DNA of 10,059 nt from a virus (IMGVR_UViG_2713896898_000004:1-10059), one strand, 5' to 3'; positions 1 through 10,059 are shown, counted from the stretch's first letter. Notes: a model not told the origin generated them from the letters alone. Numbers and translations are program-made.

Positions 1-543
1 CGCGTCAATGTAATCCAGCACAGCGTTAAGTCTGGTTGTTTCTGCCTGTGTCAGTTTACGTCCGGCCTGCAATTTCAGTTGAATCAGACTGATGGAAGCC
101 ATTGCAGTATCAATCAGCGACTGGCGCTGTGCTTCTGCTGCATCTACTGCGGCGCTGCGCTGTGCCCCGGTATCCGTCACCCATTTCTCACCATCCCATT
201 TATCGTATGACGTTAACGGAGCGAGAGTGGTTGTATTTTCAGGATAATCTCCCGGTACTGTAATTTCTTTTGCTTCTCCTGTTTCAGTGTTATAGACCGT
301 TTCACCGCGATGGTCTGGCACATACTCCCATGAGTTTAAATCTGCTGAACGGCAGATAGCATAACCAGCTTTATGTGTGCCAGGTGCATCTAAACAGGAA
401 TACGCCGGAATACCAACACCTACAGCAAGAAATTCGGTTGATGCAGAAATATATTCCCTTGTCTCACTGTTATAGTTGTAAACGATAATGTTTCCTTCCT
501 GTACGGCAATAAGCTCATTGTTTAATATCGCGTTATTCATCAT
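1..543 (-). CDS. Tail fiber assembly protein (Tfa-type chaperone); 5' portion only, the 3' end lies beyond the window start
   Basis: Minus-strand frame starts ATGATGAAT at 543-535; its ATG (543-541) overlaps the TGA stop (542-540) of the upstream cassette (ATGA coupling). Hand translation: MMNNAILNNELIAVQEGNIIVYNYNSETREYISASTEFLAVGVGIPAYSCLDAPGTHKAGYAICRSADLNSWEYVPDHRGETVYNTETGEAKEITVPGDYPENTTTLAPLTSYDKWDGEKWVTDT..., open to position 1. The HRGxTVY and KWDGxxWV pattern is typical of phage Tfa chaperones. Absent from the ORF track because there is no stop inside the window. Confidence 0.75.
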   Translation of the reverse strand, partial: MMNNAILNNELIAVQEGNIIVYNYNSETREYISASTEFLAVGVGIPAYSCLDAPGTHKAGYAICRSADLNSWEYVPDHRGETVYNTETGEAKEITVPGDYPENTTTLAPLTSYDKWDGEKWVTDTGAQRSAAVDAAEAQRQSLIDTAMASISLIQLKLQAGRKLTQAETTRLNAVLDYIDA

Positions 544-1067
544 GCAGCTCTCACAATATAGTTAAATGCAATATTTCGCGGGCGTGTTTCACTACCGCCG
601 GGAATCTTAAAGGCATTAAATACTCCGCCGCCCGACTGACTTATTCCATCTGTATACAGCCCGCCTCCTGCACTGTCGCTGATTGCAAATGTTTTTGATG
701 GTGAACTGTTTGAGGCCGGTCCCCAGTATTTCAATTCGAGCTTTCTAACCTCATCTCTCTGAATACTCAATAAAGCACGTCCGGCATCAATAGCACGCCC
801 ATCATCCCAGCCACGAATAAATTCACCGCGTAAATCAGGCAGTTTTCCTGACGGGTACGCTGTGGCTAGTTTGGGATACTTCAGCTTATCAAAGGCAGCA
901 CCATTGCATTTTAGCCAGCCCTCTGGAGGTGTGGCTGAAGGCCACGGAACTGTTACACCAACAGGCAACGCAGAACCTTCCCCCAAACCAACGTTTTTAA
1001 CTTCGAAAACAGAGCTATCTAATAGCATTTTTACTAACAGAAACAGGATGCTTTTTATGCAAATTGG
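540..1067 (-). CDS. Tail fiber C-terminal variable (receptor-binding) cassette, Mu Sv'-like; probably silent in this orientation
   Basis: Track ORF 540-1028 (162 aa) has tail-fiber/tail-collar-like motifs (WLKCNGAAF...YPKL...LPDLRGEFIRGWD). The frame stays open 13 codons upstream of the first ATG to a stop at 1068-1070, with no convincing RBS. Followed by the Tfa gene with ATGA overlap and head-to-head with the invertase, as in Mu G-segment/gin and P1 C-segment/cin. Confidence 0.6.
   Translation of the reverse strand, partial: PICIKSILFLLVKMLLDSSVFEVKNVGLGEGSALPVGVTVPWPSATPPEGWLKCNGAAFDKLKYPKLATAYPSGKLPDLRGEFIRGWDDGRAIDAGRALLSIQRDEVRKLELKYWGPASNSSPSKTFAISDSAGGGLYTDGISQSGGGVFNAFKIPGGSETRPRNIAFNYIVRAA
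978..1003. other. Candidate gix/hix-like 26-bp invertase crossover site (12 + AA core + 12)
   Basis: TTCCCCCAAACC-AA-CGTTTTTAACTT. Left half matches the gix left half TTCCTGTAAACC at 9/12 (recalled consensus); right half matches hix GGTTTTTGATAA at 7/12; central AA dinucleotide. Lies inside codons 9-17 (EVKNVGLGE) of the tail-fiber cassette, about 55 bp from the invertase start. Confidence 0.35.
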
Positions 1068-1656
1068 CTATATTCGCGTATCAACAAATGACCAGAACAC
1101 GGATTTGCAACGCAATGCGCTCAATAGCGCAGGATGTGAACTGATTTTTGAAGATAAAATCAGCGGAACAAAATCAGCCAGACCGGGATTGAAAAAACTG
1201 CTCAGAACGTTATCAGCGGGGGATACGCTCGTTGTCTGGAAACTGGACAGGCTGGGCAGAAGCATGAAACACCTGATCACACTGATTGAGGAATTGCGGA
1301 AAAAAGGTGTCAATTTTCGTAGTCTGACGGATTCAATTGATACCAGCACCCCAATGGGACGATTTTTCTTCCACGTGATGGGCGCCCTGGCTGAAATGGA
1401 ACGTGAATTAATTGTAGAGCGTACACTGGCCGGACTGGCAGCAGCCCGCGCACAGGGGCGAATTGGTGGGCGTCGCCCGAAACTGACAAAAGAGCAACAT
1501 GAGCAAATAGCGAGGCTGATTAAAAACGGCCACGACAGAAAACAGCTGGCCATAATTTACGACATCGGTATATCGACGATTTATCGTTATCACCCTGTAG
1601 GTGACACGCAACCCGGAGGAATAATTGAGAATACTCAGGAAACAAAAAACCGCTAA
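1057..1656 (+). CDS. Serine DNA invertase, Hin/Gin/Cin/Pin family
   Basis: MQIGYIRVSTNDQNTDLQRNAL...DTLVVWKLDRLGRSMKHL...SLTDSIDTSTPMGRFFFHVMGALAEMERELIVERTLAGLAAARAQGRIGGR... is near-identical in motif content to Gin/Hin (catalytic Ser in YIRVST, C-terminal HTH). Start chosen at ATG 1057 (AGGA 9 nt upstream) rather than the track's 862, which overlaps the tail-fiber cassette. The stop TAA 1654-1656 lies in a terminator stem. Confidence 0.93.
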   Translation: MQIGYIRVSTNDQNTDLQRNALNSAGCELIFEDKISGTKSARPGLKKLLRTLSAGDTLVVWKLDRLGRSMKHLITLIEELRKKGVNFRSLTDSIDTSTPMGRFFFHVMGALAEMERELIVERTLAGLAAARAQGRIGGRRPKLTKEQHEQIARLIKNGHDRKQLAIIYDIGISTIYRYHPVGDTQPGGIIENTQETKNR

Positions 1657-1677
1657 TCTGAACATTAGCGGTTTTTA
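1645..1677. terminator. Bidirectional intrinsic terminator between the convergent invertase and U genes
   Basis: Perfect 13-bp stem AAAAACCGCTAAT / ATTAGCGGTTTTT with a 6-nt loop (CTGAAC); A-run on one side, T-run on the other; sits between stops at 1656 (+) and 1685 (-). Confidence 0.65.
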
Positions 1678-1684
1678 CGTTAAA

Positions 1685-2173
1685 TCAGAACACCCCTTTA
1701 ACTGAGCTGACCACATTGTTAAGGGATGATGTCACCTTATCTTTAAGACCGGACAGCATATCACTGAACGATGAGGATTGCAGGCGCTCCCGCAAATCCT
1801 CATCACAGCGTTCAAGGGTCAGGGAAAACTCTATCTTTTTCGCTTTCCCGTAGCGATCCAGTTCAGAGCGGGTCGTGCTCGTTTCAGTCAGAACATACAT
1901 GCCGTAAATCTGCCCGACGCCATCAATCAGAGGCCACGGGCGTCCCGCATACGCCTGCGTGGTCAGCAGCGACAGCGACACTTCGCCGCCTGTAATCTCA
2001 GGATAAAGCACGCCAGAAAGAACGATGCGATCATCACCTGCACCGATATACTGCCAGCTTGCTGAACGGTTAACGCGCTCGTTTTTCACATGTCGCCAGC
2101 TTTTGTTTTGCTGTAACTGCTGATGCGGCAATGTGCGCAATTCAAAAACAAACATGCCGTAGATCATCATCAT
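1685..2173 (-). CDS. U: P2-like tail protein gpU
   Basis: 162-aa ORF directly downstream of the tape measure gene; AAGGAG RBS overlaps the T stop. MMMIYGMFVFELRTLP...GVLYPEITGG...GRPWPLIDGVGQIYGMYVL resembles P2 gpU. Gene order T-U matches P2. Confidence 0.85.
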   Translation of the reverse strand: MMMIYGMFVFELRTLPHQQLQQNKSWRHVKNERVNRSASWQYIGAGDDRIVLSGVLYPEITGGEVSLSLLTTQAYAGRPWPLIDGVGQIYGMYVLTETSTTRSELDRYGKAKKIEFSLTLERCDEDLRERLQSSSFSDMLSGLKDKVTSSLNNVVSSVKGVF

Positions 2174-2184
2174 GGCACGACTCC

Positions 2185-5022
2185 TTACTCTTTATCATAA
2201 AAGCTTCCACGCCCGGCACGGGTACGCCGCTCCAGTTCTGCCCTGACCATTTCGCCGACCAGTTTCGCCAGTTCGCGGGGATTCTGCGTAACAACGTTAT
2301 GCAGATGGACATGAATTTCACCACCAAATCCGGGGGTCGCAGCCTCCCGGCTGCGGGAAGATGCGGAAACGGGCGCAACTGGCGCACGTGCGGCCTCCAC
2401 GACCGGACGGGAGCTTGCTGCAACAACAGGGGGCAGCGCCGGAGATAACGGAGCCGGGGGCGCGGGAGTGATATTGATTGCAGGAAGAGCCTTGTTGCTC
2501 TGCGCAACCTTTCGCTCCTGCCACTCCCCACGAACAGCAAGCGCACGGGGCAGGTTCTTAAAGACAATATCACCGGGGCCGATACGCTTTTTCGTCTCAT
2601 CAACCAGCCTGCCTGTGTTATCTGCAATTTTGCTGAGCCTGCGCAGCGTGCCAGTGTTGTTGTCCGTGAGCGGCTTGTTGTCTTTAGGCTTATCGCCTCC
2701 GGTCCCTGTTTCCGCAGATTTCGGCGGATTGATTTTTGCCAGGTCCCCCTGAAGTAAAGCAACCTTGTCCTGAAGAATGGCCGCACGCTGCGCGTCTTCG
2801 ATTTTCTTTCTCGCCCTTTCCGCTTCATCTGGAAGGACGCCAAGTTTTTCCAGTATCCATGCCAGCGTATCCAGCAGCATTTTTGCAGGCGTCAGGACAA
2901 GCTGTAACGCACCGCCAAGAACGTTGCCGAACACCTCGCCAGCACTGGTGCATTTATCCAGCGTTTCCTTGCTGGATTCCATCGGTGACAGCAGCGATGT
3001 AAACCAGTTAAAGACCTGAATCACGCCATCACGAACCAGTTCGAAAACAGGGCCAAACCGTTCAAAGGTTTCGCGTAACGGGGCCAGCCGCTCCATAATC
3101 CCGCTGAACACCCCGGCAAAAAATGCCCTGATTGGGTCCCAGTATTTCCAGATGAGAACGGCAGCTCCGGCAAGCGCAGCTACGATAAGACCGACCGGGC
3201 TGAACAACGCCCCGATAGCGCCTCCCAGTAAAGAGACGGAACCCGCCACCATTCCCCACAGCGCTGGCAGGACCCTGACAGCATTCATTGATCCGGTCAG
3301 GAGGGAAAAACCAAGACGCAGTTTTGCCAGCGGGCCAGCAAGCACCCCAAGAGCCAGTGACAACGAGCCAACCGTTGCAGTCATTGCCAGCAGCGCACCG
3401 CCTGCAATCAGTAGCTGGCGCGTCAGTGCCGGATGGGCCTGCGCCAGCTCCGTCACCTTTGAGACCACCCGAGTGAGCCACTGCGTGACAGAGCGCAGCG
3501 GACCGTCAATCAGATCCGCAATGCGGATACGCAGCCCCTCCCATGCACTGCCGAGTGATTTCAGGTCGCCATCAAGGTTATTGGCCATAACCTTTGCCGT
3601 GCGTTCAGCCTCACCGCGTGCGCCTTCAAGTTCTTTTCTCAGTTTGGGCAGAGAACCGTCACCTGCCGCATCAACGAGAGCCATAAATGACGTGAAGGCC
3701 TCTTCTCCGGCTATGTCCTTAAAGAACGATACCCGGTCAACTTCCCCGTATTTGCGGGTGGCTTTATAAAGGTCGGCCAGCACATCCTCCATCGGGCGCA
3801 TTTTGCCGTTCGCATCAGAGACAGCCACACCAAGCTCTTTCAGCGCCTCAGCTGCCGCCTTTGGCGGTGATGCCAGACGAGCAAGGCTGGCACGCATTGC
3901 CGTCCCGGCATCACTCCCTCTGATACCCATATTCGCCAGCACGCCCGCCATCGCTGCGGCCTGCTCCAGCGATATTCCCAGCTTACCCGCCACCGGACCT
4001 GCATATTTCATGGTTTCGCCCAGCGCGCGAAGGTCGGTGTTAGTACGGGTAAACGCCGCAGTAAGTGTGTCGCCGACCCGGTCCATCTGGTCAGCAGAGA
4101 GGCCGAACTGCGTCAGGATATTTGAGCCAATATCCGCCGTCTCGCCAAGGTCCATACCGCCAGCCGTTGCCATGCTCAGCACGCCGGGAAGCGCAGCCTG
4201 AATGGCTTCTGGTGTGAAGCCAGCCATAGCAAGAAATGCCTGCCCACTGGCGGCATCACTCGCAGTAAACTGCGTTTCAGAGCCGAGCTTTAGCGCCTGC
4301 TCACGCAGCGCCTTAAACTGCGGGCTGTTCTGGTCAATTCGCGTCAGCGCCTGCACACGGGACATCTCTTTCCCGAATCCGATAGCGGGCTGCAAAAAAC
4401 GCCCGGCAGCATAGCCGCCAGCCGCTGCCGCACCAGTTGCCAGCGCACCACCCGTTTTCAGTTTTCCCGCTGTTTCCTGCGCGCGTGAATACTGCTCACG
4501 CGCCCGCGTTACACGCGCAAGCGCCTGTCGTTCGCGTTCAAGCTGGTTGTTGTACTGTTCGGTGCGTCTGATGGCCTGCTGGATGGTGTTATCGCTGCCT
4601 GTCAGGGAAATACCGTGGCGTTTAAGCTCTCCGCCAAGCTCCCGCATTTTCTGAATTTCCCGTGTGCGCGATTCATTCAGGCGTTCAAGCCGGGTGCTTA
4701 ACTGCTGCATCAGCTTTTGTTGTTTTTCGCTGAGCACCGTACCCGTGCGTTGTAACTGATGAAGGGCGTTAAGCTGGCGTCGTGCTTTCACGATGCCAGC
4801 ATCCGCTTTACTGACAGCATCGCGGGCGCGCTCAAATGAACGCGCCTGACGCTCGAGATTTTTGATCGCCCCCTGCGTTCGCTGGATGGAGTCACCAAGC
4901 TGTCCCATCAGGCGGCGGGCGTTTTCGGCTGGCCGGGTCAGCCTGTCAACAGCACTGAAGGCGACCCGAATGTCAAGAGTCTTCATCGTCTGCATTCCCA
5001 CTGCGAAGTGCCGCCCGCTCAC
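2185..5022 (-). CDS. T: Tail tape measure protein (gpT-like)
   Basis: 945-aa ORF with a coiled-coil-rich N-terminal region (repeated Q/R/E/L-rich heptads), a central hydrophobic Gly/Ala-rich segment and an Ala/Pro-rich C-terminus; sits between E/E' and U as in P2. The true start may be an internal Met (MQTMKTL...), since E' overlaps the 5' end. Confidence 0.9.
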   Translation of the reverse strand: MSGRHFAVGMQTMKTLDIRVAFSAVDRLTRPAENARRLMGQLGDSIQRTQGAIKNLERQARSFERARDAVSKADAGIVKARRQLNALHQLQRTGTVLSEKQQKLMQQLSTRLERLNESRTREIQKMRELGGELKRHGISLTGSDNTIQQAIRRTEQYNNQLERERQALARVTRAREQYSRAQETAGKLKTGGALATGAAAAGGYAAGRFLQPAIGFGKEMSRVQALTRIDQNSPQFKALREQALKLGSETQFTASDAASGQAFLAMAGFTPEAIQAALPGVLSMATAGGMDLGETADIGSNILTQFGLSADQMDRVGDTLTAAFTRTNTDLRALGETMKYAGPVAGKLGISLEQAAAMAGVLANMGIRGSDAGTAMRASLARLASPPKAAAEALKELGVAVSDANGKMRPMEDVLADLYKATRKYGEVDRVSFFKDIAGEEAFTSFMALVDAAGDGSLPKLRKELEGARGEAERTAKVMANNLDGDLKSLGSAWEGLRIRIADLIDGPLRSVTQWLTRVVSKVTELAQAHPALTRQLLIAGGALLAMTATVGSLSLALGVLAGPLAKLRLGFSLLTGSMNAVRVLPALWGMVAGSVSLLGGAIGALFSPVGLIVAALAGAAVLIWKYWDPIRAFFAGVFSGIMERLAPLRETFERFGPVFELVRDGVIQVFNWFTSLLSPMESSKETLDKCTSAGEVFGNVLGGALQLVLTPAKMLLDTLAWILEKLGVLPDEAERARKKIEDAQRAAILQDKVALLQGDLAKINPPKSAETGTGGDKPKDNKPLTDNNTGTLRRLSKIADNTGRLVDETKKRIGPGDIVFKNLPRALAVRGEWQERKVAQSNKALPAINITPAPPAPLSPALPPVVAASSRPVVEAARAPVAPVSASSRSREAATPGFGGEIHVHLHNVVTQNPRELAKLVGEMVRAELERRTRAGRGSFYDKE

Positions 5023-5191
5023 GCCAGCTAACCACTTCGCCGGGCGTCATCATGAAGATTTCGGCGGGCGACCAGTTAAAAATAACGGCAATATCTGCCA
5101 CAAAGTCTTCTATGTGCTCAAAGCACACAACCGTGATCAGGCTTCCGTCGCCTGTTCGTTCTTCCCGCCAGAGTCCGCACCGCTCAAAAAA
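4973..5191 (-). CDS. E': E' extension, expressed as an E+E' fusion by -1 programmed ribosomal frameshift
   Basis: The -1 frame relative to E is open from the slippery site to a stop at 4973-4975 and overlaps the 5' end of T, exactly as for P2 E+E'. The track's 78-aa ORF 4973-5209 covers this frame. Confidence 0.65.
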   Translation of the reverse strand, partial: FFERCGLWREERTGDGSLITVVCFEHIEDFVADIAVIFNWSPAEIFMMTPGEVVSWRERAALRSGNADDEDS

Positions 5192-5505
5192 TTTACGGCA
5201 ACCACACATAACTGAATAAAGTCACGGGATGCCATTTTTTTGATCGTCACTTCATCCAGTCGCGGTGATGTCACGCGTGACAACAGCGTAAACATGGATT
5301 CCGCTTTCAGATTCAGCACATCAGACAGCGACAGACCACGCAGGGATCCAGCCTGCTCAATAGCCCCGGTAATCTCCACATACGTGATTTTTTCGTCGCC
5401 TCGCTCAATTGGCTGGGTAAGTTTTACGCCGCGCTCGCCGGTTTCTTTCGCAGTATCAGCAACCACCACAGCGTTTTCAGTATTGGTATTTTTCGTCTCT
5501 TTCAT
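5137..5505 (-). CDS. E: Tail assembly chaperone gpE (frame-0 product)
   Basis: 122-aa ORF; AAGGAG 7 nt upstream of ATG 5505; position between FII and T as in P2; contains the T6G slippery site near its 3' end. Confidence 0.8.
   Translation of the reverse strand: MKETKNTNTENAVVVADTAKETGERGVKLTQPIERGDEKITYVEITGAIEQAGSLRGLSLSDVLNLKAESMFTLLSRVTSPRLDEVTIKKMASRDFIQLCVVAVNFLSGADSGGKNEQATEA
5185..5191 (-). other. Slippery heptamer T TTT TTG (T6G) for the E to E+E' -1 frameshift
   Basis: Minus strand reads GTA AAT TTT TTG AGC in the E frame; a -1 slip gives AAA TTT TTT GAG CGG..., continuing into the E' frame. T6G is the slip-site type described for the P2 FETUD operon. Confidence 0.6.
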
Positions 5506-5524
5506 CAGAAAACTCCTTTCAGTC

Positions 5525-5546
5525 AGAGGCGACGCACTGCGCCGCC
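5525..5546 (-). other. Stem-loop between FII and E (possible partial terminator / mRNA processing or stability element)
   Basis: Inverted repeat AGGCGACGCA / TGCGCCGCCT (9 of 10, with a G-U possible in RNA) in the 54-bp FII-E gap; no U-run follows, so not a canonical intrinsic terminator. Confidence 0.3.
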
Positions 5547-5559
5547 TGCATATTACTTA

Positions 5560-6072
5560 TCAGCCGAGCCCGAGCGCGGAGCGGATGCGGTCGGGTACAA
5601 TGTCCTTGCCATCCTTCCGGTAGATGTGGTTCACCAGGTCAATTTCCCACACCGGACGATCGTTAATACTCAGCTTGTAGTAGGTGTTTTTGACAGCGTA
5701 AGTGTGTGACGTGGCTTCGCCCTGTTTGGCCTCCCCCATATCAATTTCCGTCACACGCCCGCGCATCTCGATTTCATACAGGTCGCTTTCTGCATCGGTG
5801 TAGTATTCACCCGCAAAACGCAGCAGCGTGCCGTCCATTGTTCCGCCATATTTAAGGAACAGCGCACGAACGGCGCCACCCATGACAAAACTCGCATCAA
5901 GCGCGGAATCGTCCAGGCCGAGGTCGATACTCACCGCCCCCATCATGCCACCACCACGATAGCTGTCGGTTTTACGCGTCAGTTTAGGCGGGGTGACAGA
6001 CGTCACCTTACCCACTTCATTTTCACCATCCACAAACAGCGTAAAAAAACGAAGATGTTTTGGTACGGCCAT
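5560..6072 (-). CDS. FII: Major tail tube protein (gpFII-like)
   Basis: 170-aa ORF; the start ATG overlaps the FI stop (TAATG); size and position match P2 FII. Confidence 0.9.
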   Translation of the reverse strand: MAVPKHLRFFTLFVDGENEVGKVTSVTPPKLTRKTDSYRGGGMMGAVSIDLGLDDSALDASFVMGGAVRALFLKYGGTMDGTLLRFAGEYYTDAESDLYEIEMRGRVTEIDMGEAKQGEATSHTYAVKNTYYKLSINDRPVWEIDLVNHIYRKDGKDIVPDRIRSALGLG

Positions 6073-7256
6073 TAAGCACCTCCAAGCACTGCAAATGCAG
6101 GACCAAAGAACTCATCAGTGAACGCCTGGTAAAGCTCCATATCTTCCAGCGGAGGAACGGGCGTATATTTATAGCGAATACGCACGCGCCCCTGTCGTAA
6201 TTCTGTGGTGCTGTTATCCACGATGTCATACCAGCACGATGCGCCAATCAGTTTCCCGGCAGTAACCAGCGAATCCAGTTTTGCCCTGATGGCACTGATG
6301 ACGTCCTTCACGTTCGCGGGCGTTAGTGGACTGTCGATGGTTTCAAACTGCGCTTCCGCAATTGAATCAGCCAGCACCTGTGCGGTTCGGGTATACACCT
6401 CAAAGATGTAGGCGTTCGTTTCCGGTGTGCGGTTGCCCCAGAAGCGGAACCCGTTGCGGCGAATGATGGTTGTGATTTCTTTGTTGTTGAGGCTGTTGGC
6501 ATCGCTGTCATCAGCCTGCAACGACCAGAACACATGCCTGGACATCCCCAGCACATTTTTAACCGGAACGTTGGACAGCGATTTGTGCCAGCCCTGTTCA
6601 TGGTCAATGTACGCACGAAGGCCGCACGCATAGGCTGGCGCGGGGAAAACCTCATTCTCGCCACTTTTCGGGTTGTAAGCGATGAAGTCCGGCCACAGGA
6701 GCATCAGCTCGCGTTCGTTGAATTTTTCACGGTATGCAATGGCTTCAGCCATCGTGTTACAGCCATGACAGGAGGCATACACAAACGCGCGCAGTTTACC
6801 TGCAATCACGCACAGGGATTTTGTCACCGCCTCCGTGTCCAGCCCCGGCGCGGCCAGAATACGCGGACGGTATCCGATGCTTTCATCCTGCTCTGCAACA
6901 AGCAGCGCATACATCCCCGTATAGCTGCCGTCGGATTCAGAACCACCGATAACCAGTTGATCCTGTGTTTTTCCGTCTTCTTCTTTGTGTTCAGCCACGC
7001 GAACGACGATCACCTTTGTGCTCACCTGGTCTGCAATGGGTTTCAGCGCACGGTACAGCGTCCCCGTTGTCCCGCATTTTCCCAGCACGTCATTGACGCG
7101 GGTCACTAATGCAGGCTTGTTCAGCGGGAACAGCTTCGCGTCCGCATCGTCCGCCGTTGCCACGATACCGATAACGCTGGAATCAACGTCGTTAATTGCT
7201 GTTACCAGGTCGGTACTTTCCGTAACGCGGGCGCCATGAAAGCGAGTTTCACTCAT
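6072..7256 (-). CDS. FI: Contractile tail sheath protein (gpFI-like)
   Basis: 394-aa ORF, first gene of the minus-strand block; size and order (FI-FII-E-T-U) match the P2 tail operon. Confidence 0.9.
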   Translation of the reverse strand: MSETRFHGARVTESTDLVTAINDVDSSVIGIVATADDADAKLFPLNKPALVTRVNDVLGKCGTTGTLYRALKPIADQVSTKVIVVRVAEHKEEDGKTQDQLVIGGSESDGSYTGMYALLVAEQDESIGYRPRILAAPGLDTEAVTKSLCVIAGKLRAFVYASCHGCNTMAEAIAYREKFNERELMLLWPDFIAYNPKSGENEVFPAPAYACGLRAYIDHEQGWHKSLSNVPVKNVLGMSRHVFWSLQADDSDANSLNNKEITTIIRRNGFRFWGNRTPETNAYIFEVYTRTAQVLADSIAEAQFETIDSPLTPANVKDVISAIRAKLDSLVTAGKLIGASCWYDIVDNSTTELRQGRVRIRYKYTPVPPLEDMELYQAFTDEFFGPAFAVLGGA

Positions 7257-7413
7257 AGTTCCAGCCCCTTGTATCCGTTAAATGATTCGGCAACAATCAT
7301 CACCCACCACGCGCGTAATCTCATCCCTGCGCCGTTCTTGCCGCCCGGCGACAACAAAAAGCAGTAACCCCGCCCGCACACACATGCGACCATGCTGCAC
7401 AGGGAGGGAGCCG
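7257..7413. promoter_or_regulatory. Divergent FI / D intergenic region; candidate late-promoter region with an imperfect TGT-N12-ACA-like dyad at 7338-7355
   Basis: 157-bp gap between the divergently oriented FI and D starts; TGC-CGCCCGGCGACA-ACA resembles the dyad element of P2 late promoters (recalled consensus TGT-N12-ACA); strong SD GGGAGGGAG before the D ATG. Confidence 0.3.
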
Positions 7414-8523
7414 ATGATTGACACCACCATGCAACTGTTCAACCAGAGTACTGACCCCGTGAAGATGCCTGATTTTGATATTCTCGCGGAGGGGAAAACG
7501 CTGTCCGGTGTGACAGAACGCCTGATGAGCCTGTCACTGACCGACAACCGGGGATTTGAAGCAGACCAGCTAACCATCACGCTGGATGATGCTGATGGTC
7601 AGTTGCAGTTGCCGCCACGGGGCGCTCGCCTGACGGTTCTCATTGGCTGGAAAGGCGAACCGCTGACAGAAAAAGGCACTTACATTGTTGATGAAATTGC
7701 TCATGAAGGACCGCCCGACAGACTGACCATTTCAGCCAGAAGCGCAGATTTTCGGGATGAATTTAACGTCAAGCGCGAAGTATCCTGGCATGATGTGACC
7801 GTTGAACGCGTGGTGTCTGCAATTGCTCACCGATACGGCCTGAAACCGCAAATCAGCGAAATGCTGATGGATATTGAAATCGACCACGCTGACCAGACCG
7901 AAGAAAGCGACATGTCCTTCCTTACACGCATGGCGGAAATGCTGGGCGCAATCACCACGGTAAAAAGCGGTAATCTGTTATTCATCATGCCAGGTGGTGG
8001 CGTGAACGCGCAGGGAAAACCATTACCATCGTTTGCCATCACACGCAGCAGCGGCGATCGCCATCAGTTTCGCATTGCTGACCGCGAGGCGTATACGGGG
8101 GTACGCGCTTACTGGCTTGATCTTAATTACGGGAAAAAGAAAAAAGTCAGCGTGAAACGCCGCAAACCGCCAAAACCCAAAAAGGAGAAAAGCAGCAGCC
8201 GTGAAGGTGACTATATGGAAGGTGCGGAAGGCAACGTGTTTGTGTTACGCAAGACTTATCAGAACGAGCAGGCAGCAAGACGCGCAGCGGCGGCAAAGTG
8301 GCAGCAGCTACAACGCGGAGCCGCATCATTCTCCATCACGCTGGCGCGTGGACGCGCAGAACTCTACCCCGAAATGCATGGCACGGTAACAGGATTTAAA
8401 AGCGAGATTGATAATCAGGACTGGATTATTGCAAAAGCCGAGCACTCCATTGATAACAGCGGCTTTACCACGCAGCTTGAGCTTGAGGCAAAAATCCAGG
8501 AATGGATAGCAGAAACAGAGTGA
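7414..8523 (+). CDS. D: P2-like tail protein / late control gene D product (gpD)
   Basis: Start set at ATG 7414 (MIDTTMQLFNQ..., GGGAGGGAG SD) rather than the track's 7282. The 369-aa product is gpD-like in length and sequence character and is followed by ogr as in P2. Confidence 0.85.
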   Translation: MIDTTMQLFNQSTDPVKMPDFDILAEGKTLSGVTERLMSLSLTDNRGFEADQLTITLDDADGQLQLPPRGARLTVLIGWKGEPLTEKGTYIVDEIAHEGPPDRLTISARSADFRDEFNVKREVSWHDVTVERVVSAIAHRYGLKPQISEMLMDIEIDHADQTEESDMSFLTRMAEMLGAITTVKSGNLLFIMPGGGVNAQGKPLPSFAITRSSGDRHQFRIADREAYTGVRAYWLDLNYGKKKKVSVKRRKPPKPKKEKSSSREGDYMEGAEGNVFVLRKTYQNEQAARRAAAAKWQQLQRGAASFSITLARGRAELYPEMHGTVTGFKSEIDNQDWIIAKAEHSIDNSGFTTQLELEAKIQEWIAETE

Positions 8524-8565
8524 GCAACTTAGAATAGCGGCAGCACCACGTTAAGGGAGGTCGCT

Positions 8566-8826
8566 ATGTTCCGTTGTCCGCTTTGTGGCGCATCTGCCCG
8601 AATCCGCACCAGTCGTTCGGAAAATGATTCAGATACCGTACGGAAAAAATATTACCAGTGTAACAACCTGGAATGCGGCGTATGCTTCTCAACACTGGAG
8701 GCTTTCCATAAATTCACATCGAAACACGCCCCCGGCGTTCACTCTTCAGAGGGCATCCCGTGGAATGAGCTACCAGCTTCGCACAGGGGAAACAACCAGA
8801 TGAGTTTGCCATTACCTCAGAATTAA
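8566..8826 (+). CDS. ogr: Ogr/Delta-family zinc-finger late transcription activator
   Basis: MFRCPLCGASARIRTSR...YYQCNNLECGVCF: Cys4 pattern CPLC...CxxxxC typical of P2 Ogr; AAGGGAGG SD 5 nt upstream of the ATG; located directly after D. Confidence 0.85.
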   Translation: MFRCPLCGASARIRTSRSENDSDTVRKKYYQCNNLECGVCFSTLEAFHKFTSKHAPGVHSSEGIPWNELPASHRGNNQMSLPLPQN

Positions 8827-8835
8827 CAGGCTGAA

Positions 8836-8864
8836 TTGCCGGAGTAACAAAAAAGCGATAGATT
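8836..8864 (+). promoter_or_regulatory. Sigma-70-like promoter for the hok-family mRNA (TTGCCG-17 bp-TAGATT)
   Basis: -35 TTGCCG (8836-8841), 17-bp spacer, -10 TAGATT (8859-8864); predicted start near 8871, giving a roughly 400-nt transcript to the terminator at 9277, as expected for hok mRNAs. Confidence 0.45.
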
Positions 8865-8886
8865 ACGCGCGGGTGCCTTTCGGCTG

Positions 8887-9099
8887 ATGGCTGGAGGGAA
8901 TACCCGAAGGCCGGATGTGGAAAGGCCCCGGAAAACATCTCTGTTTAACCGAGGCCCTGACCATCTAACCTTAGCAAGTGATAGGTTAGCGCCTCCCCAA
9001 AAAAGGAGCAAGCGCTATGTCGCAAAAATCGCTTATGGCCATCACGTTCTGCGTGACGGTAATCCTCATCATCTGGATGCTGCACGGTTCGCTGTGTGA
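8887..9099 (+). CDS. mok-like overlapping reading frame (translational coupling frame for hok)
   Basis: 70-aa ORF in a different frame that starts upstream of and overlaps the first 83 nt of the hok-like ORF, the arrangement known for mok/hok. Confidence 0.4.
   Translation: MAGGNTRRPDVERPRKTSLFNRGPDHLTLASDRLAPPQKRSKRYVAKIAYGHHVLRDGNPHHLDAARFAV
8890..8990 (-). ncRNA. Predicted Sok-like antisense RNA (position approximate, promoter not resolved)
   Basis: By analogy with hok/sok loci an antisense RNA complementary to the mok translation-initiation region is expected; the hok leader contains a hairpin CTAACCT...AGGTTAG (8966-8989). No clear minus-strand promoter could be fixed by eye. Confidence 0.2.
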
Positions 9100-9157
9100 A
9101 ATACGGATGAGCTTCTGGGGAGCGGAGTTTGCGGCGTTCTTACAGTGTAAGCAGTAA
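9017..9157 (+). CDS. Hok/Gef-family type I toxin (small membrane peptide)
   Basis: 46-aa ORF, too short for the ORF track: MSQKSLMAITFCVTVILIIWMLHGSLCEIRMSFWGAEFAAFLQCKQ. It has an N-terminal transmembrane helix, the SLCE(I/L)R motif and a C-terminal E-x-AAF-L-x-CK, matching Hok-family peptides (closest in pattern to HokA as recalled). AAAAGGAG SD 8 nt upstream of the ATG. Confidence 0.8.
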   Translation: MSQKSLMAITFCVTVILIIWMLHGSLCEIRMSFWGAEFAAFLQCKQ

Positions 9158-9242
9158 GGAAACCGCGACGGGGGAGCAATCCCCCGTCAATCGGTTGCTA
9201 AGGCTGGCCGAAGTGGCACCCTATCCCATGGACACAAACAAG

Positions 9243-9277
9243 AAAACCCGCAGCGTAAAAACTGCGGGTTTTCTTTT
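9243..9277. terminator. Rho-independent terminator (bidirectional-capable) ending the hok-family transcript
   Basis: Stem CCCGCAG / CTGCGGG (9247-9253 / 9262-9268) with loop CGTAAAAA, followed by TTTTCTTTT and preceded by AGAAAA. Confidence 0.75.
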
Positions 9278-9348
9278 GGAGCTCTCACTTAGCTAAGGTA
9301 CCGTTAACAACACACATAATGCTCGCAAAACAAACCAGTTAAAAGTGA

Positions 9349-9630
9349 TTACTCAGCATTCTCCTGCTTCCATTGCCGGATCATTTCATCCGTAACATCA
9401 CTCTCATAACATACCACGTCATACCCTCCAGTACGGCTATATGCACTGCGTCTACCACATCTACTACCATTCCTTGCATGATTATAAGGACACGCACAAT
9501 TGCCTGGATACGATTCAATGGATTCTTTAATTATTTCTTTCTTGATCTGAGCATCAGACTTTCCTGTTGCTGCATACCCACTAAAAGATACCAAACAAAA
9601 ACAGATTGCCATTAATAAACCACATCGCAT
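9349..9630 (-). CDS. Small secreted cysteine-containing protein of unknown function (AT-rich cargo gene)
   Basis: Track ORF 9349-9744. The internal Met at 9630 starts a classic Sec signal peptide (MRCGLLMAICFCLVSFSGYA|ATGK); the mature part of about 73 aa has 4 Cys (GNCACPY...SRCGRRSAY...VVCYESDV). GC content is visibly far lower than the flanking phage genes. Confidence 0.5.
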   Translation of the reverse strand: MRCGLLMAICFCLVSFSGYAATGKSDAQIKKEIIKESIESYPGNCACPYNHARNGSRCGRRSAYSRTGGYDVVCYESDVTDEMIRQWKQENAE

Positions 9631-9852
9631 ACCGATACACTCTATTACTAACCAATCATAACCCACATCATAAAATCGAGATGTGGAGTACAACACCTTT
9701 AACAAGAAGGTGTCATAACGATAATATGCCGTGCAATTCATCAAAAAAAAGATCTATATCAAAGAGATAGAGCTCTTATCAGTGCTGCAGACATCGGCAT
9801 TCGAGGCAGCAGAAAAACAGTAAATCTGACGAATTTGCCTTTTCTCAGGATG

Positions 9853-10059
9853 TTGTCAGATTAAAAAAGACAGATTAGCGCAGGTACCTTTTGGTGGATG
9901 GCAGGAGGAAAAATGAAGTCGAGTGGAAAAATCCCAGAAAAATTTTTGTTTAACCGAGGTCCTAGTTCACTATGCGAAATACGGAGGAGCTGCAGGAGAA
10001 TTCGGCTTCATCCTTAGAGTTTAAACAGCACGTGCACTACTATTGTTTCTGCATATCGC
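9853..10059 (+). pseudogene. Second, degenerate hok/mok-leader paralog (internally deleted; runs off the window end)
   Basis: Roughly 65-70% identity by eye to 8836-8960 (shared TTGyCr...AAAAAG...GATGGCxGGAGG...TGTTTAACCGAGGyCCT), then jumps to a match with the hok SLCEIR-coding segment (GTTCACTATGCGAAATACGGAGGAGC vs 9093-9118, 22/26). The hok SD, start and transmembrane region are missing and the promoter spacer is only 12 nt. Confidence 0.4.

Follow-up and report, generated by a model that had tools for sequence, protein, structure and literature searches.

A single-gene AT-rich cargo cassette in a P2-like prophage at leuZ encodes a predicted exported four-cysteine protein of a large unannotated family

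Towards the right end of the viral DNA analysed here, a stretch of 10,059 nucleotides hereafter called the window, an AT-rich segment with one small minus-strand open reading frame (ORF) lies between an intact hok locus and a degenerate copy of it. This raises the questions of what kind of element the segment is, how it came to be flanked by two hok copies, and what the small protein encoded in it may do for the phage or its host. On balance, we favour the explanation that the segment is a moron of P2-like prophages residing at leuZ, that its product is an exported four-cysteine domain which would serve as an envelope-binding module, and that the flanking hok copies are old paralogues; taken as a whole, this explanation appears somewhat probable to us. 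The features concerned are collected in Table 1.

Table 1. Coordinates of the features in the window and the basis of their assignment
Feature	Position (nt)	Strand	Basis or remark
Tail genes (tape measure, tube, sheath)	before ogr		P2-like core
gpD	7282-8523		P2-like core
ogr, late-gene activator	8566-8826	+	Pfam Ogr_Delta 2.4e-14; RefSeq annotation in a 99.4% identical genome
hok/mok/sok type I toxin-antitoxin locus, intact	8851-9160	+	mok ORF 8887-9099, hok 9017-9157
GC-rich hairpin with T-runs on both strands	9240-9275	both	terminator scan and sequence reading
AT-rich island, cargo cassette	9281-9862	none	39.5% GC
Small ORF, 93 aa plus stop	9349-9630	-	ORF list; RefSeq WP_071596708.1
Predicted mature 73-aa four-Cys domain	9570-9352	-	alignment, heuristics
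Predicted signal peptide, residues 1-20	9630-9571	-	n/h/c heuristics
Presumed promoter and 5′ UTR of the small ORF	9631-9820	-	about 190 nt kept in a 79%-identical copy elsewhere
Degenerate hok copy	9863-10028	+	leader 9863-9963 joined to hok 3′ coding end 9965-10028

The window represents the right arm of a P2-like Escherichia coli prophage integrated in the tRNA-Leu gene leuZ, and ogr is the final core gene of this prophage ahead of the cargo slot. In every E. coli genome inspected, the island is adjoined by the leuZ-cysT-glyW tRNA cluster, which lies upstream of pgsA. In strain A17 the intact prophage is found between yecA and leuZ, with a 124-bp exact direct repeat at both ends (attL and attR) that corresponds to the 3′ half of leuZ together with its downstream terminator, and in a genome sharing 99.4% identity with the window attR is reached 42 nt after the last position of the window. 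Because the att repeats bracket the region, the integrated element encompasses everything from ogr to the degenerate hok copy, with hok and the island in between, and the possibility that the island is bacterial DNA outside the prophage is ruled out by the repeats on both sides. Judging from these att repeats, the island would also be packaged in virions.

The interval between ogr and attR is a variable cargo slot. The same slot holds hok followed by a DUF4177-like gene in phage P88, and a YafO toxin module follows ogr, with no hok, in an enterotoxigenic (ETEC4085) prophage whose tail genes show 98% identity. Matches to at least one part of window positions 8560-10059 (ogr, hok, island and degenerate hok) occur in about 1,694 E. 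coli genomes, and the island itself is present in 618 of 5,426 complete E. coli genomes (about 1 in 9), O157:H7, O26, O111 and ETEC strains among them. In these genomes the gene is located at this one end of the prophage beside leuZ, with no annotation beyond ‘hypothetical protein’. The leuZ-type integrase occurs in 525-608 genomes and the island in 576-618, and these similar counts indicate that the island is nearly fixed within the lineage carrying this integrase; most other P2-like prophages are without it. The comparison of related P2-like prophages proposed in the preliminary description thus has a split outcome, with variable presence among these prophages in general and near fixation within the leuZ-type lineage.

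The full protein is encoded by none of 50,697 phage genome records, and in IMG/VR 76 viral contigs carry family members, about 40 of them of the E. coli type and located near contig ends. The sole phage record with a leuZ-type integrase, NC_049344.1 (‘Escherichia phage 520873’; L021/L022), was considered as a leuZ-type phage without the island and was rejected, as the record ends before the island: it is a predicted prophage that runs from inside host yecA to the middle of hok, with host DNA at one end and with the true right end, comprising the island, the degenerate hok and attR, missing.

That the segment around 9300-9800 has a GC content below that of the flanking genes, as first described from the sequence, is confirmed by calculation. 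Positions 9281-9862 have 39.5% GC compared with 53.2% for positions 1-9280, which is the lowest value of any 582-nt window in the whole stretch; the windows of this size left of position 9000 have a mean of 53.5% (sd 4.2, minimum 43.0). The coding sequence of the small ORF likewise has a GC3 of 0.31, compared with 0.56-0.61 in the tail genes. The bracketing att repeats, the other genes that occupy the slot in close relatives and this deviant base composition together uphold the initial view of the island as horizontally acquired cargo.

The island constitutes a self-contained cargo cassette (‘moron’), in which one gene is preceded by a presumed regulatory region and followed by a shared terminator acting in both directions. 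This terminator is predicted to be the hairpin at 9240-9275, for which the minus-strand scan gives 15 pairs followed by GTTTGTG..., and the plus strand reads CCCGCAG...CTGCGGGTTTTCTTTT; it would serve the convergent hok and small-ORF transcripts in common. Upstream of the small ORF, strong conservation marks a block at about 9719-9787 within the region 9631-9820, which also has two short inverted repeats, at 9663-9686 and 9693-9713. A promoter consensus scan found no sigma-70 consensus on the small-ORF strand, and the promoter is presumed from the conserved upstream block. The cassette is also found in another setting, namely on an E. coli contig where a 79%-identical copy of the small ORF is flanked by the copA promoter region on one side and by an IS5 end on the other (L023, 5670-6560). 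This copy keeps the upstream block of about 190 nt and is followed by a hairpin terminator of its own, with neither ogr nor hok visible there, which indicates that the cassette moves as a unit and also occurs outside the leuZ prophage. In the copA-linked copy, the first inverted repeat, CCACATC/GATGTGG, is changed to CCTCATA/TATGAGG, which includes a compensatory A-T to T-A change; in O157 the repeat has a mismatch, and the sequences are too few for calling a conserved RNA structure.

With regard to the flanks, the left hok copy is recognized by Pfam HOK_GEF (30.3 bits, cut-off 22), with the NCBIfam HokA-like model below its cut-off and Rfam sok at 40.9 bits (E 1.9e-7), under the gathering score of 59. 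The right copy aligns with it by blastn in two pieces, 9863-9963 with 8851-8958 (75% identity, E 3e-15) and 9965-10028 with 9087-9154 (69%, E 1e-6), and these alignments substantiate the described position of the island between an intact hok locus and a degenerate one. The right copy has a 128-nt internal deletion, through which the sok region as well as the start and the transmembrane part of hok have been lost, and Rfam finds no sok match in it.

The preliminary description had gone further and suggested insertion of the island into a hok site or duplication of such a site. As a recent event this is not supported, since the two copies are only 69-75% identical and are therefore not a fresh duplication produced by the arrival of the island, and since the deletion in the right copy is internal and not at the island boundary. 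P2-like prophages of Salmonella enterica at the same leuZ site (L009, 7900-9550) carry hok leader copies in a tandem array of three between ogr and attR. Two of them have intact 46-aa hok genes, and the third is truncated after about five codons of hok, precisely at the point where a convergent small ORF with 68% identity begins; in these prophages the small ORF is located between the hok array and attR, and not between two hok copies. Truncation of hok exactly at the small-ORF junction is seen only in Salmonella, so that insertion into a hok site agrees with the Salmonella junction and disagrees with that of E. coli. The Salmonella arrangement implies that the small ORF sits in an array of old hok paralogues, and together with the 69-75% identity it leads us to reject the two copies as a target duplication. 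The att-proximal hok array of this phage lineage has been reshuffled by recombination, and the copies flanking the island are old paralogues of that array, not made by the insertion. Of the two flanks, the left one qualifies as a complete Hok/Sok locus of the type known from P2-like phages (‘MokW-like host killing’) and the right one descends from such a locus, whereas the small ORF is unrelated to hok and, across bacteria, mostly occurs without a hok nearby.

The minus-strand ORF noticed at the outset is borne out, with its length of 94 aa to be corrected to 93 aa (MRCGLL...ENAE); in RefSeq the same protein (WP_071596708.1) is annotated as ‘hypothetical protein’ in the 99.4% identical genome. 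A longer version of 130-131 aa starting from an upstream TTG is given in ORF lists and by metagenome gene callers, but its extension is not conserved in the family. The small ORF is a real gene under purifying selection. Pairwise dN/dS is 0.10-0.22 when the window copy is compared with E. coli copies (95-98% identical) and with diverged copies (79% and 73% identical), synonymous sites being saturated in the comparison with the Salmonella copy (68%), and among the loci retrieved, each of the 35 full-length copies of the E. coli type is intact. The 73%-identical copy has the same layout, with ogr-hok and the gene convergent, and copies of 68-79% identity are retained beside ogr-hok in other E. 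coli and Salmonella prophages. A search of the literature on leuZ or P2-like prophages with hok and ogr, and on the RefSeq accessions, found nothing on this gene.

These results bear directly on the reading that the ORF is non-functional and that the island consists either of flanking bacterial DNA or of a remnant decaying between two prophage ends. The degenerate hok copy alongside does resemble debris, the phage-database records of the lineage end before the island, and no free-phage genome has it; however, the island lies inside the att repeats, dN/dS is 0.1-0.2, the 35 copies are all intact, the copies of 68-79% identity have been kept beside ogr-hok in other prophages, and the protein is conserved across phyla. 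This reading is therefore largely refuted, and we consider it extremely improbable.

The product of the gene has the features of an exported protein. Its N-terminus, MRCGLLMAICFCLVSFSGYA, continued by ATGK after the predicted cleavage site, comprises a basic n-region (R2), a hydrophobic core and small residues at -3/-1; the core, LLMAICFCLVSF, has a Kyte-Doolittle value of 3.16 over 10 aa, and G-Y-A at residues 18-20 is followed by A. By n/h/c-region heuristics this is the layout of a Sec-type signal peptide (charged n-region, h-region of at least 10 residues, small residues at -3/-1), and an equivalent signal-like N-terminus is present in 27 of the 27 aligned relatives, although the sequence there is unconserved. 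The Sec signal peptide and the mature part of about 73 aa with four cysteines, both claimed earlier, are thus recovered by these heuristics and shared by the relatives. Three further cysteines are situated within the signal peptide, where they are preceded by I or F (A-I-C, C-F-C), and a lipobox L-[AS]-[GA]-C is absent.

In the mature part, the four cysteines C45, C47, C58 and C74 are invariant in the 27-sequence alignment and belong to 18 invariant residues, the others being S37, Y41, G43, P48, Y49, G55, G59, R61, S62, A63, S65, G68, G69 and Y75. An AF2 model of the mature domain has a pLDDT of 91.8 and a pTM of 0.78, and it has no structural relative in the PDB or BFVD; when the family profile was searched against PDB sequences, only TGF-beta mimic proteins came up, at an E of about 0.8, which was dismissed as chance. 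We propose that the 93-aa precursor would leave the cytoplasm through the Sec pathway and lose its first 20 or so residues by cleavage, and that the product would be a 73-aa periplasmic domain in which two helices pack a conserved loop core, G-N-C-x-C-P-Y...N-G-S-x-C-G-x-R-S-A-Y-S-x-x-G-G...C-Y. Two disulfides probably staple this domain, and the likely pairs are C45-C58 and C47-C74, because a phage mini-version of the protein keeps only the equivalents of C45 and C58.

This mini-version is a 53-aa ‘transmembrane anchored protein’ of lambdoid/P22-like phages of E. coli and Klebsiella, which consists of a signal peptide and the core loop and which matches the family profile with an hhalign probability of 96.9% (E 1.8e-10). 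It retains a two-Cys peptide of 30 aa after the signal peptide. Like phrog_14503/‘transmembrane anchored protein’, to which the gp43 of phage TL-2011b belongs (L025, 3441-3602), the small-ORF protein has a signal peptide and the core loop, the shared loop being G-x-C...G-S-R-C-G-G-R-S-A-x-S-R-P-G-G; unlike it, the mini-proteins are without both helices and without two of the four cysteines, and the name ‘transmembrane anchored’ merely reflects their signal peptide. Mini-proteins, of which Klebsiella phage ST512-KPC3phi13.3 provides another example (L026, 2935-3093), are located in moron regions beside ant/arc and a YafO-family toxin, and they are common in E. coli, with more than 1,000 contigs.

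The product had been described as belonging to no known family, and this stands, as scans of the protein and 95 relatives against Pfam, NCBIfam and PADLOC gave nothing above cut-off. The best Pfam match of the protein is Sclerostin at 17.9 bits (cut-off 27), NCBIfam gives none, and no family of PADLOC-DB 2.0 matches at E<=1; the Sclerostin match and a Ragweed-allergen one were treated as chance resemblances of the cysteine pattern. In PHROGs, phrog_27544 is the same protein (2e-58) and is annotated as function unknown. The family itself is large: at least 2,252 representatives of 50%-identity clusters are found at E<=1e-3, with 1,397 at E<=1e-10, and it spans Proteobacteria and beyond, with strong conservation across phyla. 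A word index gives 221 matches at 50-60% identity in Pseudomonas, Geobacteraceae, alpha-proteobacteria and Salmonella, and at least 430 species genomes have a family member, including many of Acinetobacter, Kosakonia, Pectobacterium and Aeromonas.

The genomic contexts of the family elsewhere are mostly mobile or accessory. They include a prophage end at which the family member lies between tail-fibre genes and AbiU2 plus a serine recombinase, and islands with HSDR_N, phage tail genes, TrwB-like or DUF4224 genes. In 15 Acinetobacter species the family member is always directly downstream of cysN on the same strand (loci including L045, L051, L059, L061, L066, L070, L073 and L075), often with a PadR-like regulator or a thioredoxin-like gene near, the latter in 5 loci; in Kosakonia the member has another fixed context. 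These Acinetobacter and Kosakonia copies look non-phage, and the Acinetobacter one resembles a stable gene of the chromosome rather than phage cargo. In 80 species loci and in 8 contexts inspected by hand, no neighbour gene is conserved across genera, and synteny is found within a genus only.

The Acinetobacter contexts, namely cysN upstream in 15 cases and a thioredoxin-like gene near in five, together with the invariant C-x-C-P motif, might point to a small periplasmic redox or metal-binding protein acting through C-x-C, which is CPC in most members. This synteny is, however, confined to one genus, and the His/Met ligands typical of periplasmic metal sites are not present. Moreover, the mini-version keeps one Cys of the C-x-C plus the counterpart of C58, which speaks for structural disulfides rather than a vicinal redox pair; the two-Cys homologue thus makes C-x-C less likely as such a pair, and we regard a redox or metal-binding function as very unlikely.

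More is suggested by the proteins in which the domain is joined to others, as surveyed in the best 150 of the 2,252 family representatives. Among the longer members (n=58), SH3_3 is present in 14, PG_binding_1 in 3, PG_binding_2 in 1 and TonB_C in 1. The same best 150 of 2,252 include fusions to a staphylococcal-type nuclease (SNase, in both orders) and to a GmrSD_C/HNH nuclease, and also tandem copies of the domain, up to two within a 604-aa protein (examples of fusions and tandems are P0130, P0191, P0222, P0233, P0202, P0121, P0123 and P0161). All of these partners have extracytoplasmic roles, either at the wall or with extracellular DNA, and they do not by themselves identify the ligand; the domain could be the active part of the fusion proteins, not an anchor.

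Based on the fusions to SH3_3, PG_binding_1/PG_binding_2, TonB_C and the secreted nucleases (SNase, GmrSD_C), we tentatively propose that the domain may act outside the cytoplasm as a module that binds a conserved envelope ligand, either peptidoglycan or some other anionic polymer, a proposal that we consider possible and far from assured. Made alone from the prophage, the domain would then occupy or shield this envelope ligand in the periplasm of the lysogen, which would be a lysogenic-conversion function. The nuclease fusions could instead be taken to mean that the protein is a stand-alone form of an extracellular or periplasmic nucleic-acid-binding or nuclease-accessory domain, and the invariant Arg/Ser/Tyr residues (R61, S62, Y64, S65) would suit phosphate binding. 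However, the SNase (both orders) and GmrSD_C/HNH fusions amount to 4 of about 70 long members, those to SH3 and PG-binding domains are commoner, and the modelled structure has no similarity to known DNA-binding folds; a role in nucleic-acid binding is therefore improbable in our view.

A broader version of the envelope proposal is that the domain of about 70 aa represents an undescribed extracytoplasmic fold and family acting on the envelope, for example by binding peptidoglycan or by inhibiting wall-degrading enzymes, and that several unrelated lineages of temperate phages would have captured it for lysogenic conversion or exclusion. The capturing lineages would be the P2-like phages of E. 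coli (O157:H7 and O26 included) and Salmonella, the serine-recombinase prophage, and the lambdoid phages with the 30-aa mini form. We rate this broader version as rather unlikely to be correct in full.

The exclusion function can also be considered in its own right, that is, as a periplasmic anti-phage or superinfection-exclusion factor which blocks DNA entry or neutralises the wall-degrading enzymes of incoming phages or competitors, to the benefit of the lysogen. Such a factor would be at home in the variable cargo slot of a temperate phage; relatives of the protein occur at prophage ends beside AbiU2 and a recombinase, the mini-version lies in a lambdoid moron region next to a YafO toxin and ant, and the peptidoglycan-related fusions fit an envelope role. 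Nevertheless, the protein has no PADLOC match and is without the lipobox or membrane anchor typical of most exclusion proteins known so far, the family members of Acinetobacter and Kosakonia are chromosomal and syntenic, and the slot between ogr and attR falls outside the described defence hotspots of P2, which are GpA-GpQ, int-att and the tail region (PMC13586616). The report of Rousset et al. makes no mention of ogr, hok, attR or gpD (PMC9122126). We think it unlikely that the protein is an exclusion factor, and the defence or host-interaction role raised in the preliminary description finds little support.

For the locus as a whole, the closest parallels to the envelope-directed cargo that we favour are found among prophage morons. 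Well-known examples of morons or lysogenic-conversion cargo are bor and lom of lambda, and tin, old and Z/fun of P2. Like such morons, the island lies between attL and attR, is replaced in close relatives and deviates in base composition; it is a single AT-rich gene with its own upstream region and terminator, occupies a variable position of a temperate phage and is absent from close relatives, and its product is predicted to be directed to the envelope. Unlike the examples, the product is predicted to be soluble and periplasmic, with neither a lipobox nor a beta-barrel. Therefore, on present evidence, the locus is an uncharacterised prophage moron and not a new kind of system, and its novelty lies not in the architecture but in the size and conservation of an unannotated family without structural relatives. 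Identifying the ligand would annotate thousands of proteins, and it could reveal a new way for temperate phages to modify the host envelope.

Among known domains, the Excalibur extracellular Ca-binding domain (PF05901) resembles the family only in its lifestyle, being likewise a small extracytoplasmic loop with a Cys bridge, found either by itself or joined to SNase-type secreted nucleases, and its motif D-x-D-x-D-G-x-x-C-E is one to which the family loop N-x-x-x-N-G-x-x-C-G is loosely similar. However, no Pfam match to Excalibur was found in the 27, 58 and 10 members scanned, and the corresponding motif of the family reads N-x-A-R-N-G-S-x-C-G, in which the acidic Ca ligands are replaced, with a different Cys spacing and four cysteines.

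Several further observations concern variation in other parts of the prophage. A second variable slot is found between gpD and ogr in related prophages, where it contains a YecA-family protein, a 487-aa hypothetical protein or a 217-aa hypothetical protein (L003, 3852-4991; L005, 39639-41102; L001, 11204-11857), and it is empty in the window (8523 to 8566). By the tail-fibre/assembly genes, at about 860-1660 (plus strand) and 190-780 of the window, a recombinase-family (invertase-like) gene is annotated in near-identical genomes; the gene is located in a second lower-GC stretch (about 43%) and probably represents a switch for tail-fibre inversion. IS100 interrupts the prophage tail sheath gene in the genome most similar to the window (L001, 6915-8716), and in O157:H7 (L002, 3442-5681) gpD, ogr and hok are replaced by IS30 and IS3-family elements, with the small ORF still intact.
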